Shown here one piece after another: positions 2,660 through 17,403 of a DNA stretch of 29,086 nucleotides. Where the stretch lies: the NCBI GenBank assembly GCA_048622595.1, contig JBMCUM010000001.1, forward strand, positions 1-29,086. The letters are read 5' to 3'. Made by a program: the position numbers and the translations under genes. Numbering within the stretch: the first letter of the stretch is position 1; every line of letters begins with the position of its first letter. Source of the stretch: Planctomycetota bacterium. GTDB taxonomy: Bacteria > Planctomycetota > Phycisphaerae > SM23-33. The notes beneath the pieces were generated by a model that worked only from the letters and a program-made list of their open reading frames with translations, did not search any database and was not told where the DNA came from.

Positions 2660-4617
2660 GAGCCCGGGTCCTCCGCAAGGCGCAGGCGGGTCTCGGCGGG
2701 GCGCTTGCGCACCCGGAAGCTCGCCGAGACCGACCCGCTGATGTCGTAGCTCGTCTCCAGCGTGTGCGTCACGGACCTGCCGAACAGGTGCGTATCCTCC
2801 CGTCGCGCCTGGGCGATCACCCGCGCCTTGCTGGGCGGAAGCAGCGGAAGCTCCCGCCGGTCCAGCGCCAGCCCGCCGGTCGGCAGAGCGGCGCGGAGGT
2901 ATACGTGCGTCGCGCGGGTCGCCACGACGCGACGGACGGCGTCGAACAGCTCGCGCGGCGTTTCGGGGGCGTACCGGTGCGGACGCTGCGCCTGCCGCGC
3001 CGCCACCGCCCGGAGGTAGTCCATCGCCTCCAGCGTGTACTCGCCCTCGGGCATGTCGTCCGGCAGGGCGAAACGGACCGGCATCGTCGTGCGCGGCGCG
3101 CGGAACGGACGCAACAGGAGCTTTCCGGTGACCGTCTCCCCCGGGCGGTACGTGCGCCCGTCCAGCCGCAGCGCCAACAGCGACGCCCGGCGGTTCGTCG
3201 GTTGAATCGTCATCCGCACGTCGATGCGCTCCAGCTCGGCGGGCGGGCCCAGCGGGTTGTCCAGCATCGCCGCCAGCGGGCGGGACACGTCGCTGATCAG
3301 CTCGGTGACGTTCTCCCCGCCGGCGACGTTTTCCACCCGGTAGACCGGAAGGTCCGCGAAGCGGATCTCGACCGCGTAGCGCACCGTGTGCTCCGGCGGC
3401 AGGCCATGCCAGCCCCACGCCGCCGCCTGCAGGAGCATCCGCGCCAGCGCCACCGTCAGCAGCCGGTGGCGGGCGATGTTGAACGTGTAGACCTGCTTGC
3501 GCCCCGTCCGGGTCCACTCCACGGCGATGCGCATGGGCACGAGGGACGGCTTGGGCCCGAGGCGTCCGGAGACGCCGACGGCCTGGTCGCGCTGCACCGT
3601 CCCGTCGATCCGCACCGTCGAGCCGAGCTTGAAGCTGCCCAGAAGACTGGAGACCACCGTGTGGACGTACCCGGAGCCCATGGGCAGGTCGACGTCGCCC
3701 TCGGCCTGGAAGGCGTGTCCGAACCCAAGCACGCGCCCCTCGACCACGTCGGTCACCGTCCCGATCGCCACCCAGTCGGCGTCCCCGGTGACCATCGGAA
3801 CGGCCATCGCCGCCCCGGGTTCCAGGCGCACGTCGCCGACTGCGGCGCGGTCGGCCTGGCCCAGTCCGCCGCCGGCCAGCGGGACCAGCCCAAGCGGGCT
3901 CAGCAGCTCTCGCGCCGCGCGCATGGCCCGGTGCGGCATGCCGGACAGAACCAGCGGCGTTTGCAGCGGCATCAGCCGCCCGGGCTCTGCGCGGCGCGCG
4001 CCGGCGCGTCCGGCGGCCTGGGCGCTGAGCCACGCGGCGAAGTCGCGCTTCGACGGGTCGAGCAGGGCCGCGACGTACGCCTCGGGGTCGCGTCCGGCGG
4101 CGCCGGTCCACGCGCCGCCGTCCGGCGCGGCGTCCTCGTCCCCGCCGCCGACGCCGGCCGAGGCGAGCATCTGCGTAATCGGCTGGACGCCGCACTGCGG
4201 ACGCTTCTGGGCGGTCCACCCGTAAGCGACCGCGCCGATGATTTTCTCCTTCCCGTCCCGGGGGTCGCGGATGAACACCGGCGAGCCGCTCATCCCCGAG
4301 ACCAGCCCGCTCTCGGACAGGTCCACCCCCCCGCACGTGCCGCTGACCCGCGCCAGAATCACGTCCTGGTGCGGACCCCAATCGTCCATGACCGAGACGA
4401 TCTCCACGTCGAAGCGTCCCAGCTCGGTCCCGCGCATCACGGTCAGCCCGTAGCCCGTCATCCCGCGCTCGAGGCGGCTGTGGTGGAGGTAGCGGTCCGA
4501 ACCCTCCACGTAGCGGCGCGCCGCGGCGATCGCCGAGTCGCCGGCGTCGGCCGCATCGACCGCCGGCGCGCCCGCGGCCAGCAGTAGGCATATCGCTGTC
4601 GCCGGATGACACATCAT
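2656..4617 (-). CDS. SpoIVB-type peptidase S55 domain protein, secreted (~653 aa)
   Basis: C-terminal part of the 1053-aa ORF. GMTGYGLTVMRG..F.VEIVSV, DVILAR, catalytic-Ser motif SGMSGSPV, IIGAVAYGW, GFGHAF; signal-like N-terminus; GGAG upstream of ATG 4617 (alternative start 4653). Confidence 0.85.
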   Translation of the reverse strand: MMCHPATAICLLLAAGAPAVDAADAGDSAIAAARRYVEGSDRYLHHSRLERGMTGYGLTVMRGTELGRFDVEIVSVMDDWGPHQDVILARVSGTCGGVDLSESGLVSGMSGSPVFIRDPRDGKEKIIGAVAYGWTAQKRPQCGVQPITQMLASAGVGGGDEDAAPDGGAWTGAAGRDPEAYVAALLDPSKRDFAAWLSAQAAGRAGARRAEPGRLMPLQTPLVLSGMPHRAMRAARELLSPLGLVPLAGGGLGQADRAAVGDVRLEPGAAMAVPMVTGDADWVAIGTVTDVVEGRVLGFGHAFQAEGDVDLPMGSGYVHTVVSSLLGSFKLGSTVRIDGTVQRDQAVGVSGRLGPKPSLVPMRIAVEWTRTGRKQVYTFNIARHRLLTVALARMLLQAAAWGWHGLPPEHTVRYAVEIRFADLPVYRVENVAGGENVTELISDVSRPLAAMLDNPLGPPAELERIDVRMTIQPTNRRASLLALRLDGRTYRPGETVTGKLLLRPFRAPRTTMPVRFALPDDMPEGEYTLEAMDYLRAVAARQAQRPHRYAPETPRELFDAVRRVVATRATHVYLRAALPTGGLALDRRELPLLPPSKARVIAQARREDTHLFGRSVTHTLETSYDISGSVSASFRVRKRPAETRLRLAEDPGS

Positions 4618-10037: not shown

Positions 10038-12673
10038 CACAGCACGCGCTGGTCCAGCACATTGGCGTTGATCTGCGGCCTGCCGCTCAGAGCGTCCGGC
10101 TCGAGGACGCGGACGGCGTCGGCCCAGGCACCGGCCTCCGGCGCCAGCTCGGTCAGCTTGTTCGCCCCGCCGGCCAGCAGGTCCGTATTGAGCCGGTTGC
10201 CCTCGCGGTCGCCGAACAGGGCGAAGTAGAGGATGTCCAGCTCGACGAGTTGGCTGAAGAAGTGCGTCCCCATCGACACGTCCGGGGTGACGTTCTCGCC
10301 CATCGCTACCAGCTCGCACATGATTGAGACGGTGGAGATGTCCGCGAACTGCACGGGAATGCCCAGCGACGGCGTGGTCGTGCCCCACCGACCCGGGCCG
10401 ATCAGCATGTACGTCCGCCCGGCCTCTGCGCCGTCGACCGAGGCGCCCGCGCCGGGCTCGGGGTGCGTCAGCCGTCCGATCAGCCGCGCCACGGCGTAGC
10501 GGTCCGGGATGGGCAGCTTATCGTACACCGACGGGACGACGTAGATGATCCGGTCGATGTGTCCGCTACGGCTTCGACCCAGCACGGCGCCACGGGCCTC
10601 CAGAAGACACTTCTCGTCCGGCAGGTTCTCCGGCGGCGGTTCGATCGCCCCGCCCTCGCGGACCTGCAAGGGGCGGCACTGAAGCATGTTGATCCTGTAC
10701 CCGCCTTCGGGGGTCGACTCCCCGCTCGCGGCGTCGACGAGATTGACGCTGAACTCGATGTCCACCGGGTATTCGTAGGCCCGCTGGAGCGTCGCGAGCA
10801 TCTCCCGCATGTCCGCGACGAAGTCCGTACGGGAAAACAGATTGTCGAACGTCAGTACCAGTGCAGCCGGGTCGTCCAGCCCGACGCGCCGGGCGACCTG
10901 CTGGTCGCGCGTGGCGAACATGTCGATCGGCAGCCCCTCGCTGCGGGCGACGACGTCGGTGAACCGTTTGGAAACCAGCCGGTTGGCCTCCAAGTCCAGC
11001 ACGTCCACCTTGCGCTGTGAGTACTGGCGGATCTGGTCGAAGTCGCCTTCGGGCCTGCGGTCCGGGGCGTTCAGCGCGACCAGGCGGGTGTAGTCGTCGT
11101 CGCTCCGCTCGACGGCGCGCGTCCCCAGCCCGAAGGCGAGCCGCAACACGCCGGCGGCGGGGTCGATCTGAGGACTCCAGACGTAGGGGTTGAACGAGAA
11201 CCCCACCCCCGCCGCCTGCGGGTAGTACAACTGCCGCCCGTACATCGCCCCGCTGACGCGCTGGACCAGCAATGCCATCTGCTCGTCCCGGTCCAGCAGC
11301 CCGCGCTCGGCGCGGTAGCGCAGGGCCCGCTCGGACATGCTGGAGGCGTAGATGGCGCGGACCGCGGCGAGGAAGTTGTCCAGCCGCGCCTGGCGCGGTC
11401 CCTGATTCACGCAGAAGACGCTGTCGTACTTTCCCGCGAAGGCGTTGCCGAAGTTGTCCTCCAGCAGGCTCGAGGAGCGCACGATGATCGGCGACTGCCC
11501 AAAGTAATCGAGCATGTCCTCGAACTGCTGGCGGACGTAGTCGGGGAATTCGCCGGTGAGCATCCGCTGGCGGGCCTGCTCGGCGCCTTCCAGGAAGCTT
11601 CCCGGGTCGCGCTGCTTGGCGCGGGTCCACCACAGCCCGTTGCGAACGAGATACGTGTAGAACACGTCCGACCCGACGTAGAACGAGTCGTGACGCTCCA
11701 GCAGGCGGTTCCAGCGCGGGTCGGCCTGGGCGAGAATCGCCCGCGCCAGCAGCATGCCCACGCTCTTGCCCCCGATCAGCCCCGTCCCGACCATCCGCCG
11801 CCCGATCGCCAGCACGTCGGTCAGCGAGAAGTACCGCTCGGCCAGGGCGAGCACGCGCTCGTCGCGCGAAACGGCCATCCGCAGCAGACGACGGAGGATC
11901 GATGCGGCTTCCTCGCTGCCGGCAGCGCCCCGGGGGGGTTCCTCGATCGCGCGCTCGCCGGCGACGAACGTCCGGTCCCACAGCCCGGTCGGGAAGGTCG
12001 CCGCGTCCTGACGCAGCCAGGGGTTCTGTGTGAGAATCTCCGCGATGACCGTGCTGTGTGTGATCGTGCGGAAGTTCTCGCCGTCGCGCTCGTGGAGCAT
12101 GTGCATCGTCGGCGAGTGACGCCCCTGGACCTTCCACGGATGAACGTACTGCCTGCCCTCGTGACGGTAAACGTCCATCAGAATCTGTGCCGTCTCGGCA
12201 ATGGTCGCCGTCGTGTGCGCCGCGTGCGTCTGACGCATCAGCAGGAAGTACGCCAACGCCCCGACGTCGTAGATGTACGGGCAGGTCAACATGAAGAAAT
12301 TCGCCAGCATCTGGTCGCTGTACCAGTCGGCCGCCAGGTCGCTGAGGCAGTCGAAGACGTAGTACGCCCGCGCCCCGTTGTCGGCGATGACATGGTGGAT
12401 CTCGCCGAGGAACGCCTCGAACCCCGCCGTCGCATCCAGCGGGAAGACCCGGACGCCGTCGCCGGGCTCCATCAGCGGCGGGTGCTTGGCGAAGCGAAAG
12501 TAGACGCACGGATACCCCAGCCGCCGCGCCGCGGACGCGTACGCCGGCAGAAAGGCGCGATAGTCTTCCACCGACTCCACGTGCCAGACCACGTTGTCCC
12601 CGGCCATCAGCCCGCGAACCACGTCGTCCAGCCCGGTCAGGCCCGTGCTCAGTTGCGTATCCATCTGGGGCAT
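10022..12673 (-). CDS. PEP/pyruvate-binding (PPDK_N ATP-grasp) domain protein with a degenerate KaiC/RecA-like N-terminus (883 aa)
   Basis: LSTGLTGLDDVVRGL N-terminus without a Walker A; IIVRSSSLLED..FAGKYDS, MALLVQRV, FGLGTRAV, VDIEF, LQCRP; C-terminal GPGRWG..LGIPV..SMGTHFF; RBS GGAGAG. Confidence 0.85.
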   Translation of the reverse strand: MPQMDTQLSTGLTGLDDVVRGLMAGDNVVWHVESVEDYRAFLPAYASAARRLGYPCVYFRFAKHPPLMEPGDGVRVFPLDATAGFEAFLGEIHHVIADNGARAYYVFDCLSDLAADWYSDQMLANFFMLTCPYIYDVGALAYFLLMRQTHAAHTTATIAETAQILMDVYRHEGRQYVHPWKVQGRHSPTMHMLHERDGENFRTITHSTVIAEILTQNPWLRQDAATFPTGLWDRTFVAGERAIEEPPRGAAGSEEAASILRRLLRMAVSRDERVLALAERYFSLTDVLAIGRRMVGTGLIGGKSVGMLLARAILAQADPRWNRLLERHDSFYVGSDVFYTYLVRNGLWWTRAKQRDPGSFLEGAEQARQRMLTGEFPDYVRQQFEDMLDYFGQSPIIVRSSSLLEDNFGNAFAGKYDSVFCVNQGPRQARLDNFLAAVRAIYASSMSERALRYRAERGLLDRDEQMALLVQRVSGAMYGRQLYYPQAAGVGFSFNPYVWSPQIDPAAGVLRLAFGLGTRAVERSDDDYTRLVALNAPDRRPEGDFDQIRQYSQRKVDVLDLEANRLVSKRFTDVVARSEGLPIDMFATRDQQVARRVGLDDPAALVLTFDNLFSRTDFVADMREMLATLQRAYEYPVDIEFSVNLVDAASGESTPEGGYRINMLQCRPLQVREGGAIEPPPENLPDEKCLLEARGAVLGRSRSGHIDRIIYVVPSVYDKLPIPDRYAVARLIGRLTHPEPGAGASVDGAEAGRTYMLIGPGRWGTTTPSLGIPVQFADISTVSIMCELVAMGENVTPDVSMGTHFFSQLVELDILYFALFGDREGNRLNTDLLAGGANKLTELAPEAGAWADAVRVLEPDALSGRPQINANVLDQRVLCYLEA

Positions 12674-15125: not shown

Positions 15126-15431
15126 TTACTTGTCGCCCTCGATGCGCGTGATCATCAGCTCCCAGCCGTTGGCGGTCTGCGGCTCATCGGCGCCGGGGGC
15201 GGTGAGCGTCTGGCCGGGCTCGACGGTCGCCACATCGACGGCGGCGTCGGCGAACCGCCCGCTGTCGTCGGCCTCGAAGGCGTGCTCGAAGCTGTGGGCG
15301 AGGAAGTCGGCGGAGACGCCGTGCAGCGCCCCGACGGTCATCTCGATGCGGGTGACGCGCCGGAAGCCCTGGTTCTCGGCGACCTGGCGCACCTGCGGCC
15401 AGAGCTCCTTAGCCAGTCCGTGTTCGTGCAT
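15126..15431 (-). CDS. hypA: HypA/HybF-like nickel metallochaperone lacking the Zn-finger cysteines (101 aa)
   Basis: N-terminal MHE motif, VTRIEMTVGALHGVSADFLAHSFE, C-terminal G.ELMITRIE; GAGG RBS before ATG 15431; no Cys in the protein. Confidence 0.75.
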   Translation of the reverse strand: MHEHGLAKELWPQVRQVAENQGFRRVTRIEMTVGALHGVSADFLAHSFEHAFEADDSGRFADAAVDVATVEPGQTLTAPGADEPQTANGWELMITRIEGDK

Positions 15432-15450
15432 GCTTCGCCTCACTCTTCAA

Positions 15451-15648
15451 AAACAGCAGGAATTCATGGGATACAGGGGATACAGCTTGCTTTTATAGCG
15501 GGGATGAACACGCCCGGACGGGTGCCCGTATGGGCAGATCAACGCGGATGAACTATATTGTTTTCCCTCTGCGTTCATCGGCGTTCATCCCCGCTATTTT
15601 GACGAGGAGAAGTCGTTATCCCCTGCATCCCCTGCATCCCTGCTATTT
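15451..15648. repeat. Nested inverted-repeat element built from 9- and 10-bp tandem units, with no ORF of its own
   Basis: Outer IR 15451-15482 vs 15617-15648 (27/32); inner perfect 15-bp IR 15495-15509 vs 15583-15597; 9-mer ATCCCCTGC units at 15618-15643; 10-mer units at 15568-15587; hairpin at 15523-15536. Confidence 0.85.
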
Positions 15649-16133
15649 GGTTTTGTCGTCTTCGCCGAGCGCAGGACGTCCTCGACGAGTCGGACCCCCG
15701 CGGCGGTCAGGTCGTCCAGCGCGGCGGCGAGCTCGTCGCTGAGCGTCCGCCCGTAATCGACGACCTTCGGCTGGATCGCCAGCACGCGGACCTCCGCGGG
15801 ACGGTGGAAGAACCGCGCCACGAGTGTCAGCGTCTCGTTGAACGGCGCGTCGTGCATGCTGGCGCGGTGCTCGGCGGGCAGGTCGCAGAGCTGCTGCGGC
15901 GTGACGGCGCGGTGCTCGCCGGGGGCGAGCTTCATCTCGGCCGAGTCGAACACGACCAGCCGCGTCGCGTCCTCGATCACGTTGATGAGGTTCAGCCCCC
16001 CGGCGCCGCCGTCGACGAATTCGACGACCTTGGGCCAGTCGCGCGCCTGCTGCACGCGCTGGAGCACGCGCACGCCGACACCGTCGTCGCGCATCAGGAC
16101 GTTTCCGATTCCCAGGACGGTCAGGTCGCTCAT
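15594..16133 (-). CDS. [NiFe]-hydrogenase maturation protease (HyaD/HybD/HycI family)
   Basis: LGIGNVLMRDDGVG, FVDGG, VFDSA, SMHD, LAIQP; C-terminal tail encoded by the repeat element. Confidence 0.9.
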   Translation of the reverse strand: MSDLTVLGIGNVLMRDDGVGVRVLQRVQQARDWPKVVEFVDGGAGGLNLINVIEDATRLVVFDSAEMKLAPGEHRAVTPQQLCDLPAEHRASMHDAPFNETLTLVARFFHRPAEVRVLAIQPKVVDYGRTLSDELAAALDDLTAAGVRLVEDVLRSAKTTKPNSRDAGDAGDNDFSSSK

Positions 16134-16874: not shown

Positions 16875-17291
16875 TCAACTGTTCGGGGATGTTTGTTGGG
16901 GGCAATTGCTGCCCACGCCAATCTGGCGATTGCGGCGCAGGCTCGCAACGAGACCTTTCGTCAGCCCGCGAACGCGATCACCTAGATCGTATGCTCGGCA
17001 TACATGGTCATGTTCCAGATAGCCAAGTTTCTCCGCGGCGATCAATTGCGTCTCCGTTTCGTTAAGAGACCCCAACGCCATGTCAAGAAAACGAAGAAAA
17101 TCGGCCTTGCTGGAGCGGCCATGACCTTCGGCGATGTTGCTGGCGACGCCGACCACCGCCCTTCGGACTTGGGCCCGAAGGCCGAATCGCTCGTCGGGGG
17201 GAAAGGATCGGGTCAGCTTGTAGACTTCGAGCAGCAGATCCATGGCCGCCTGCCATGCTCGCAAGTCCCGATATGACTTGATGGCGGCCAA
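16875..17291 (-). CDS. Four-helix-bundle protein (23S rRNA IVS protein family, PF05635/TIGR02436-like), copy A
   Basis: SYRDLRAWQAAM, YKLT..FPPDERFGL.AQVRRA, SNIAEGHGR, FLRFLDMALGSLNETETQL; probable TTG start at 17291 with GGGAG 7 nt upstream; ~56% GC in sampled lines. Confidence 0.92.
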   Translation of the reverse strand: MAAIKSYRDLRAWQAAMDLLLEVYKLTRSFPPDERFGLRAQVRRAVVGVASNIAEGHGRSSKADFLRFLDMALGSLNETETQLIAAEKLGYLEHDHVCRAYDLGDRVRGLTKGLVASLRRNRQIGVGSNCPQQTSPNS

Positions 17292-17368
17292 TCCGCGCTC
17301 CCCAAGATGTTCGGCGACCTTCCTGGCGCTCGTTCCGGCCTCAAACACTCCACGCCGCCCGTCACCCG

Positions 17369-17403
17369 TCGAACATCGAACGTCGAACACCGAACGTCGA
17401 ACG
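17369..17403. repeat. Heptamer tandem array, 5 x YCGAACR (5' arm of cassette A, inverted relative to 16782-16823)
   Basis: TCGAACA TCGAACG TCGAACA CCGAACG TCGAACG; begins 2 nt after the hisC stop on the minus strand. Confidence 0.92.

Follow-up and report, generated by a model that had tools for sequence, protein, structure and literature searches.

The segment between a hydrogenase maturation protease gene and a hypA-like gene described here is probably one copy of a mobile hairpin repeat, non-autonomous and devoid of genes, a nested composite that inserted at the 3' end of the protease gene. In this reading, an empty inner element with arms of the GGATGAACGC family would sit in the loop of an empty outer element with arms of the GGGGATGCA family, and in other genomes these arm families bracket one clade of GxxExxY genes (PDDEXK_3, PD-(D/E)XK-like). 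The composite would have entered the his-protease-hypA-pgsA gene run at the end of the protease gene, replacing its last codons and its stop codon. It would have been moved in trans by an enzyme encoded outside the element, through a mechanism that leaves no target duplication. At this junction it would be selfish or near-neutral and would serve as no host device. The repeat family appears to be undescribed; literature searches for the arm sequences and for GxxExxY cassettes found no paper.

The window, that is, the whole stretch of 29,086 nt analysed, is contig C1 of a Phycisphaerae MAG (1.92 Mb, 64% complete, about 70% GC) that was obtained from a hypersaline microbial-mat metagenome. Its minus strand carries hisC, a four-helix-bundle cassette, hisB, a HycI/HyaD-type maturation protease gene, the hypA-like gene and a CDP-alcohol phosphatidyltransferase gene (pgsA); upstream of hisC there is another cassette of the four-helix-bundle kind. 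One congener has the same order, hisC-(cassette)-hisB-protease-hypA-pgsA, and genomes of three other genera retain most of it. A four-helix-bundle gene is found between hisC and hisB in the MAG (16875-17390), in congener G002 (L010, about 2724-3101; 47% identity) and in G008, from another genus (L015, about 2709-3056; 53%); G005 has none at this position. This gene is either an old shared cassette or the occupant of a recurrent landing site.

The element between the protease and hypA genes is no assembly artefact, because a 4.9-kb contig from the source run spans it and a second sample yielded an identical 219-nt contig covering 15559-15777. No empty allele was seen in the reads at a likeness of at least 85%. 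A contig from a salt-lake metagenome (run X2) matches hypA and the initial 20 nt of the left arm at about 97% identity and departs at 15470 into unrelated A/T-rich sequence. It may come from a strain with a different variant of the element at the same site, and could be an outer-only case.

The element spans about 15444-15655 (212 nt, with ends set by family-wide flank statistics), and its GC content is 0.52 versus about 0.70 for the genome. Its parts and the two bordering genes are as follows, with the strand given for coding features.

15126-15431, minus strand: hypA-like gene with its ATG at 15431 (Pfam PF01155, 1.8e-9; orthologues)
15444-15456: left terminal extension, A-rich on the plus strand, ending 2 nt from the hypA Shine-Dalgarno sequence (flank complementarity, 66 family members)
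15457-15482: left outer arm, three degenerate 9-mer units of GGGGATGCA type (inverted repeat; matches the family terminus in at least 118 stretches)
15495-15509: left terminus of the nested inner element, TAGCGGGGATGAAC type (15/15 inverted repeat; also bounds independent elements elsewhere)
15510-15536: central segment with a small hairpin, interrupting the inner left array and common to the copy on contig C158 (alignment; fold)
15537-15589: innermost hairpin, in which the 10-mer units GATCAACGC-GGATGAAC pair with GTTCATCGGCGTTCATC around a 19-nt loop (inverted repeat of 17 nt, 88%)
15583-15597: right terminus of the inner element, holding the protease stop codon (TAG, minus strand, 15594-15596; inverted repeat, ORF)
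15617-15642: right outer arm, three near-consensus 9-mer units (inverted repeat; zero mismatches to the family pattern)
15643-15655: right terminal extension, T-rich on the plus strand (flank statistics)
15597-15656, minus strand: protease codons 160-179, element-derived, TKPNSRDAGDAGDNDFSSSK (orthologue alignment)
15594-16133, minus strand: HycI/HyaD-type hydrogenase maturation protease gene, 179 aa as assembled (Pfam PF01750, 2e-21; TIGR00072, 1e-34)

An earlier sequence-only reading of this DNA had proposed an outer inverted repeat, an inner one and a central hairpin, and all three were recovered. The outer repeat pairs 15451-15482 with 15617-15648 (32 nt, 27/32 complementary, 84%), the inner repeat pairs 15495-15509 with 15583-15597 (15/15), and in addition to the small central hairpin there is an inverted repeat of 17 nt (15537-15553 with 15573-15589, 88%). 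The stem-within-stem expected from these repeats was also obtained in the computed RNA fold: over 15425-15665, the minus (mRNA-sense) strand folds into one long structure of this kind at -106.8 kcal/mol (z = -7.42), and none of 200 shuffled controls folded as well. RNA of the plus strand folds at -98.7 kcal/mol (z = -5.49). Three of the five mismatches in the outer stem are G-U-compatible only on the mRNA-sense strand, which folds 8 kcal/mol better. This strand bias is weak evidence because it comes from one locus and is not repeated in the C158 copy, in which the single transition mismatch of the outer arms favours the opposite strand. The hypA gene had been described as keeping its Shine-Dalgarno sequence free; its ATG at 15431 is 19 nt beyond 15451 and the GAGG at 15438-15441 is outside the stem. 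The start and ribosome-binding site of hypA are left intact just outside the hairpin.

The search of Rfam at gathering and permissive thresholds gave no match except a chance miRNA hit, and no ORF conserved between element copies was found. A small-peptide reading was rejected, since the 42-43-aa ORFs have no conserved start between copies; their residue similarity exists because the arms are conserved. The promoter and terminator scan, for which long nested stems are beyond the scoring, returned a single match in the element, a weak sigma-70-like promoter site (9/12) at 15531-15559 on the plus strand, directed antisense into the protease gene.

The element is an insertion, because the gene order around it is conserved in four relatives but their junctions are short. 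The gap between protease and hypA measures 26 nt in congener G002 and 0, 20 and 53 nt in the three other genera; in the MAG, 163 nt separate the present protease stop from hypA. The junctions of all four same-order relatives are without the element, so that orthologous junctions do not share its sequence. Congener G002 is only about 79% identical and has a resembling CCAAAAC...TAGC string at its empty site, so the insertion point is approximate. The protease frame behaves as the sequence-only reading had described, crossing the outer arm and ending in ...KPNSRDAGDAGDNDFSSSK at a TAG (15594-15596) inside the inner right arm. The further proposal that the element rewrites the protease C-terminus agrees with the alignment of orthologues, which are 156-165 aa long and alignable only to residue 159 or so. 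Because the orthologues align no further, and because the element ends about 13 nt outside the conserved arms, residues 160-179 are repeat-derived. The element supplies the last 20 residues and the stop codon of the protease in place of the native C-terminus.

The nested structure recurs in the same genome. Contig C158 has a full copy, 71% identical along its whole length, and C38 has a half copy; there are also inner-type elements, on C7 and C140, as well as arms that stand alone. The C158 copy (1781-2000) lies between purB and a Fer2/FAD/NAD oxidoreductase gene. In congener G002 these two genes abut, with stop and start overlapping, and in congener G001 (L306, 2344-3651) they are separated by a gene that we take to be of flavodiiron type. 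The half copy on C38 (L003, about 10691-10778) consists of left arms only and supplies the TAG stop of murD. In the alignment, the C1, C158 and C38 copies have spacers in common, and C1 and C158 also share the central insert. Because spacers and centre are common to the copies, the composite spread as one unit and was not put together at the protease junction. The sequence-only reading of two successive insertions of different repeat families is therefore not upheld for this site, although it may describe how the composite originated. The composite arose once in the lineage and afterwards reached at least three sites of the MAG in one piece.

The composite arm (outer array, spacer and inner terminus) was found in 2 of 99 genomes of the order, at three loci in the MAG and, with a different spacer, at three loci in G006, a genome of the same family. 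G006 also shows the reverse nesting at 12 loci or more (L225-L238), with GGATGAACGC arms outside and GGGGATGCA arms inside at a fixed offset of 36 nt, and several of these loci have a longer upstream repeat in common. A scan of the metagenome collection for the central segment of the composite gave 0 matches. Matches to the composite arm pattern in metagenomes were rejected, as they comprised only CRISPR I-E repeats and chance matches in genes. The type I-E CRISPR repeats (L239, L244, L247, L249 and L251) contain GCGGGGATGAAC, a string that is also the inner-arm terminus; this overlap is taken to be a coincidence.

Both repeat families have other copies, for which the sequence-only reading had suggested a search. 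With up to 3 mismatches allowed, the MAG itself has 6 outer and 8 inner arms, G006 has 149 outer and 112 inner arms, and the two congeners have no outer arm and, each, a single marginal match to the inner one; with the patterns reversed as a control, 0 matches were obtained. The species-representative collection has exact outer-arm matches in more than 118 stretches, mostly from MAGs of Phycisphaerae and Planctomycetales. Outside Planctomycetota, there are such matches in Geobacterales: in Geomonas oryzae S43, in a Geobacteraceae MAG and in a Desulfuromonadales MAG. In Planctomycetota, outer and inner arms alike form the ends of the elements in large repeat families. On the fetched loci there are 78 distinct paired outer-arm elements, of which 67 are gene-less and 68-300 nt long, and inner-type arms likewise bound short gene-less elements. 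The outer and inner families have a common terminus, TAGC(A/G)GGGATG. At L060 (G024, contig C5, 14200-15600), five outer-type arms stand in direct orientation at a spacing of about 80 nt within polypurine/polypyrimidine tracts, an array that is a tandem amplification of arm and flank with no paired element. The scan of viral contigs was uninformative: for the outer arm it gave two isolated strings resembling an arm, and for the inner arm nothing.

The ends of the outer elements were defined from 66 members. The two flanks are complementary at 0.41-0.59 for the 13 nt that adjoin the conserved arm, and at no more than background from 14 nt outward. The base adjoining the arm is G in 61/66, followed outward by A (47/66), T (42/66) and T or A, so that WTAG abuts the stem. 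Each terminus thus has an extension of about 13 nt, with an A-run on one side and the mirror T-run on the other, and comes to about 40 nt in total; in terminal inverted repeats, size and lack of coding sequence the elements are MITE-like. The interiors are A/T-rich and without palindromy beyond the arms, and a whole-length foldback reading was discarded because interior self-complementarity (0.22, versus 0.16 in between-element controls) shows no excess. Among the 66 elements, no direct repeat of 2-9 nt at any offset rose above permutation controls. A cut-and-paste parent of DDE type is made less likely by this lack of target duplication. Longer elements with the same arms hold GxxExxY genes, one REPtron and unassigned ORFs, and none was seen to encode a DDE transposase. 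A comparison of two arm-rich congeners for empty sites found none; at 75-80% identity these genomes are too diverged and rearranged.

Whether other copies enclose small genes was a question raised by the sequence-only reading; some do, and these genes are of the GxxExxY type. All four outer-arm elements with a single cargo gene identifiable by Pfam carry GxxExxY/PDDEXK_3/TIGR04256 (L034, L039, L128 and L133). Among the other long outer-arm elements, one holds a complete REPtron and one an unassigned ORF of 233 aa. Inner arms bracket GxxExxY genes at L049/L285 and at L056; the cassettes at L049 and L056 are directly upstream of what is presumably ftsY, in two genera (G006 and G021). The GxxExxY proteins that come with one or the other arm type, six in number and from six genomes, group in a single clade (support 98/95), apart from those GxxExxY proteins in these genomes that are flanked by other arms. 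We know of no function for this protein family.

The four-helix-bundle (PF05635) genes have different surroundings. In four relatives, 16 of 17 such genes have heptamer or other arms, mostly heptamers, and all five in the MAG are flanked by other arrays, again mostly heptamers; no GGGGATGCA or GGATGAACGC arms were found around the MAG's five or the 17 in the four relatives. Because of these arm types around the cargo, the element belongs with GxxExxY-type cassettes and not with its four-helix-bundle neighbours. The design attributed to it earlier, that of the four-helix-bundle cassettes, is thus right as regards short tandem units arranged as inverted arrays, located at a gene boundary and lacking cargo, but the arm relatives carry GxxExxY/PDDEXK_3. 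Of the suggestion that it is a non-autonomous or emptied form, the first part stands; the second finds no support, because the interior shows no trace of a former gene and the great majority of the family's copies are gene-less. No PDDEXK_3 (PF13366) gene was matched in the 64%-complete MAG. G006 has four PDDEXK_3 genes against about 260 arms, and none of the four has outer arms.

What moves the element is a more valuable question than the single instance. We tentatively consider, as a possibility that falls well short of probable, that a small GxxExxY protein of the PD-(D/E)XK type, and no known transposase, mobilises hairpin cassettes with ends of 9-10-nt units. These cassettes would form an undescribed class of prokaryotic mobile DNA without target duplication, with a preference for operon junctions and with processing of the stem as in rRNA intervening sequences (IVS), and the element would be a non-autonomous rider. 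The match between the protein clade and the TAGC(A/G)GGGATG terminus would then reflect specificity of an enzyme for its substrate. The pairing of arms with GxxExxY proteins would fit such recognition and would fit equally well cassettes that travel as units. It is much less likely that the element is REPIN-like and mobilised by a RAYT or TIRYT tyrosine transposase. The missing target duplication agrees with such an enzyme, the conserved WTAG adjoining the stem recalls the GTAG tag of REPs (PMC3733652), each relative has 6-16 matches to Y1 transposases, and in L051 one RAYT (NF047646, 81 bits) lies between outer arms. However, the L051 case is a single instance, and its RAYT carries its own classical GTAG-REPs inside the arms, which makes it a nested REPtron and no partner. 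The remaining Y1 genes are flanked by classical REPs unlike these arms, and the arms are tandem arrays, not self-palindromic REPs. The REPtron occupies L051:1500-2420 (the same as L105 and L266) and comprises the RAYT, three tandem REP copies of 51 nt upstream and an inverted GTAG-REP downstream. This RAYT was rejected as the mobiliser, having its own GTAG-REPs and no close second copy in the five genomes searched. We also find it improbable that an inner-family element landed in an outer-family element already present at the site, as two independent insertions. Both tiers do have complete termini of their own family, nesting is seen in both orders in a relative (e.g. L225), and it happens elsewhere, a second-tier inverted repeat, often again of tandem units, being present in about one third of the 110-350-nt elements. 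Against this, the same composite occurs on C158 and C38 with homologous spacers and the same central insert, its arm pattern was found in only two of the order's 99 genomes, each of which has its own lineage-specific spacer, and one nesting event followed by spread of the composite is the simpler account.

In the transcript of the gene run, the inserted composite would form an outer stem of about 30 bp and an inner stem of 15 bp, followed by U5 and the ribosome-binding site of hypA. By analogy with the IVS of 23S rRNA and with Correia elements, the outer stem may be cut by RNase III or may act as a terminator or attenuator. IVS stems in 23S rRNA are RNase III substrates (PMC4990558), and the terminal inverted repeats of Correia elements are cut by RNase III (PMC10969869, PMC2649163). 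Of 12 relatives, 11 have RNase III; in the MAG assembly itself (64% complete) it was not found. Cleavage or partial termination would uncouple hypA and pgsA from the upstream genes. It is unlikely, however, that the element is a host-selected cis-regulatory RNA that sets the protease:hypA:pgsA ratio through processing, stabilisation or attenuation, with the family as a portable toolkit of terminators and processing sites. The family consensus of A-run, long stem and T-run has the layout of a bidirectional intrinsic terminator, the copies are mostly located directly after stop codons between co-directional genes, the outer stem has the G-U and folding bias toward the mRNA-sense strand, and cyanobacterial STRR hairpins between hydrogenase genes have been discussed likewise (PMC2670836). 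But location after stop codons is also expected from purifying selection on random insertions, the mismatch in the C158 copy favours the other strand, and all four relatives of the same gene order do without the element. In addition, the protease loses its native C-terminus, and arm numbers range from 0 to about 150 across related genomes. Least credible, to the point of being negligible, is that the arrays are G-quadruplex simple-sequence repeats acting via G4, like the GGGNATC arrays of Xanthomonas and Nostoc. The units contain GGG or GGGG tracts at 9-nt spacing, and Rehm et al. described paired convergent heptamer arrays between aligned ORFs, mostly transcribed (PMC4692102). However, the family consensus has only three G-tracts per arm, and the fourth is here 29 nt away on the mRNA-sense strand or 19 nt on the plus strand. 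The inner family (GGATGAACGC) is not G4-prone, and strict arm pairing and the strong duplex energy favour a hairpin.

With an occupied site to set against empty ones, the composite shows that hairpin repeats built of tandem units are inserted DNA in high-GC genomes, and that such repeats can enter operons and remodel protein C-termini while neighbouring genes are left undestroyed. It links the GxxExxY proteins to a large group of inverted tandem arrays in intergenic DNA that has so far lacked an explanation. Geomonas oryzae S43, which carries two outer-arm elements on contig NZ_RAHW01000006.1 (L099), is in culture, so that mobility and RNA processing would be accessible to experiment there. 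Annotation should treat as repeat-derived, and not as native sequence, the 20 C-terminal residues of the protease and stop codons like the one of murD on C38.

Among known systems, the closest relatives of the element are the gene-less forms of GxxExxY (TIGR04256/PDDEXK_3) hairpin cassettes. These cassettes have inverted arms of 9-10-nt tandem units that at other loci enclose a small GxxExxY gene, are mostly empty and lie at gene junctions. The element differs from them in being a two-tier nested composite of two sister arm families, in overwriting a protein C-terminus, and in that no GxxExxY gene was found in its own, incomplete genome. With the IVS of 23S rRNA (Coxiella, Leptospira, Salmonella; PMC4990558) it shares a low-GC insert with a terminal inverted-repeat stem of about 28 bp inside a transcribed unit and a sporadic, horizontal distribution, and the IVS stem is a substrate of RNase III. 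Unlike an IVS, it lies between protein-coding genes in a window without rRNA by Rfam, and it has no S23p/four-helix-bundle ORF.

Correia/nemis elements of Neisseria and the MITEs ERIC, RUP and Nezha (PMC2649163, PMC10969869) are likewise gene-less, 100-300 bp long, bounded by terminal inverted repeats and co-transcribed; their hairpins are cut by RNase III or alter mRNA stability, and they can create gene fusions. In contrast to them, the element has no TA or other target duplication and its terminal inverted repeats are tandem-unit arrays, and, unlike a classical MITE, it has no transposase-bearing parent IS with the same termini among those found. Other readings of gene-less inverted tandem arrays have been published: those of cyanobacteria were taken for STRR hairpins (PMC2670836), those of Xanthomonas and Nostoc for G-quadruplex repeats (PMC4692102) and those of Geobacter metallireducens for 'global regulator sites' (PMC2700814). 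The STRR, the GGGAATC pairs of Xanthomonas and the G. metallireducens sites are also gene-less pairs of opposite-strand arrays, transcribed, between co-directional genes. These arrays differ in having 7-8-nt units and in being read as G4 or protein-binding sites, with neither mobility nor a cargo-bearing form proposed. The palindromic elements of Rickettsia, as described in PMC10969869, are also palindromic selfish DNA that becomes coding sequence; they insert internally and in frame, whereas the element here replaces a C-terminal tail and adds a stop.

The closest mechanistic models are REPs, REPINs and TIRtrons (PMC3116915, PMC3733652). REP/REPIN-RAYT systems and the TIRtron resemble the element in hairpin doublets, absence of target duplication, xTAG at the stem and genome-specific bursts that are absent in close relatives, but the arms here are not self-palindromic, and the sole RAYT inside such arms has its own REPs. 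The element is thus a lineage-specific, MITE/REPIN-like insertion of the GxxExxY-cassette type and represents no new category.
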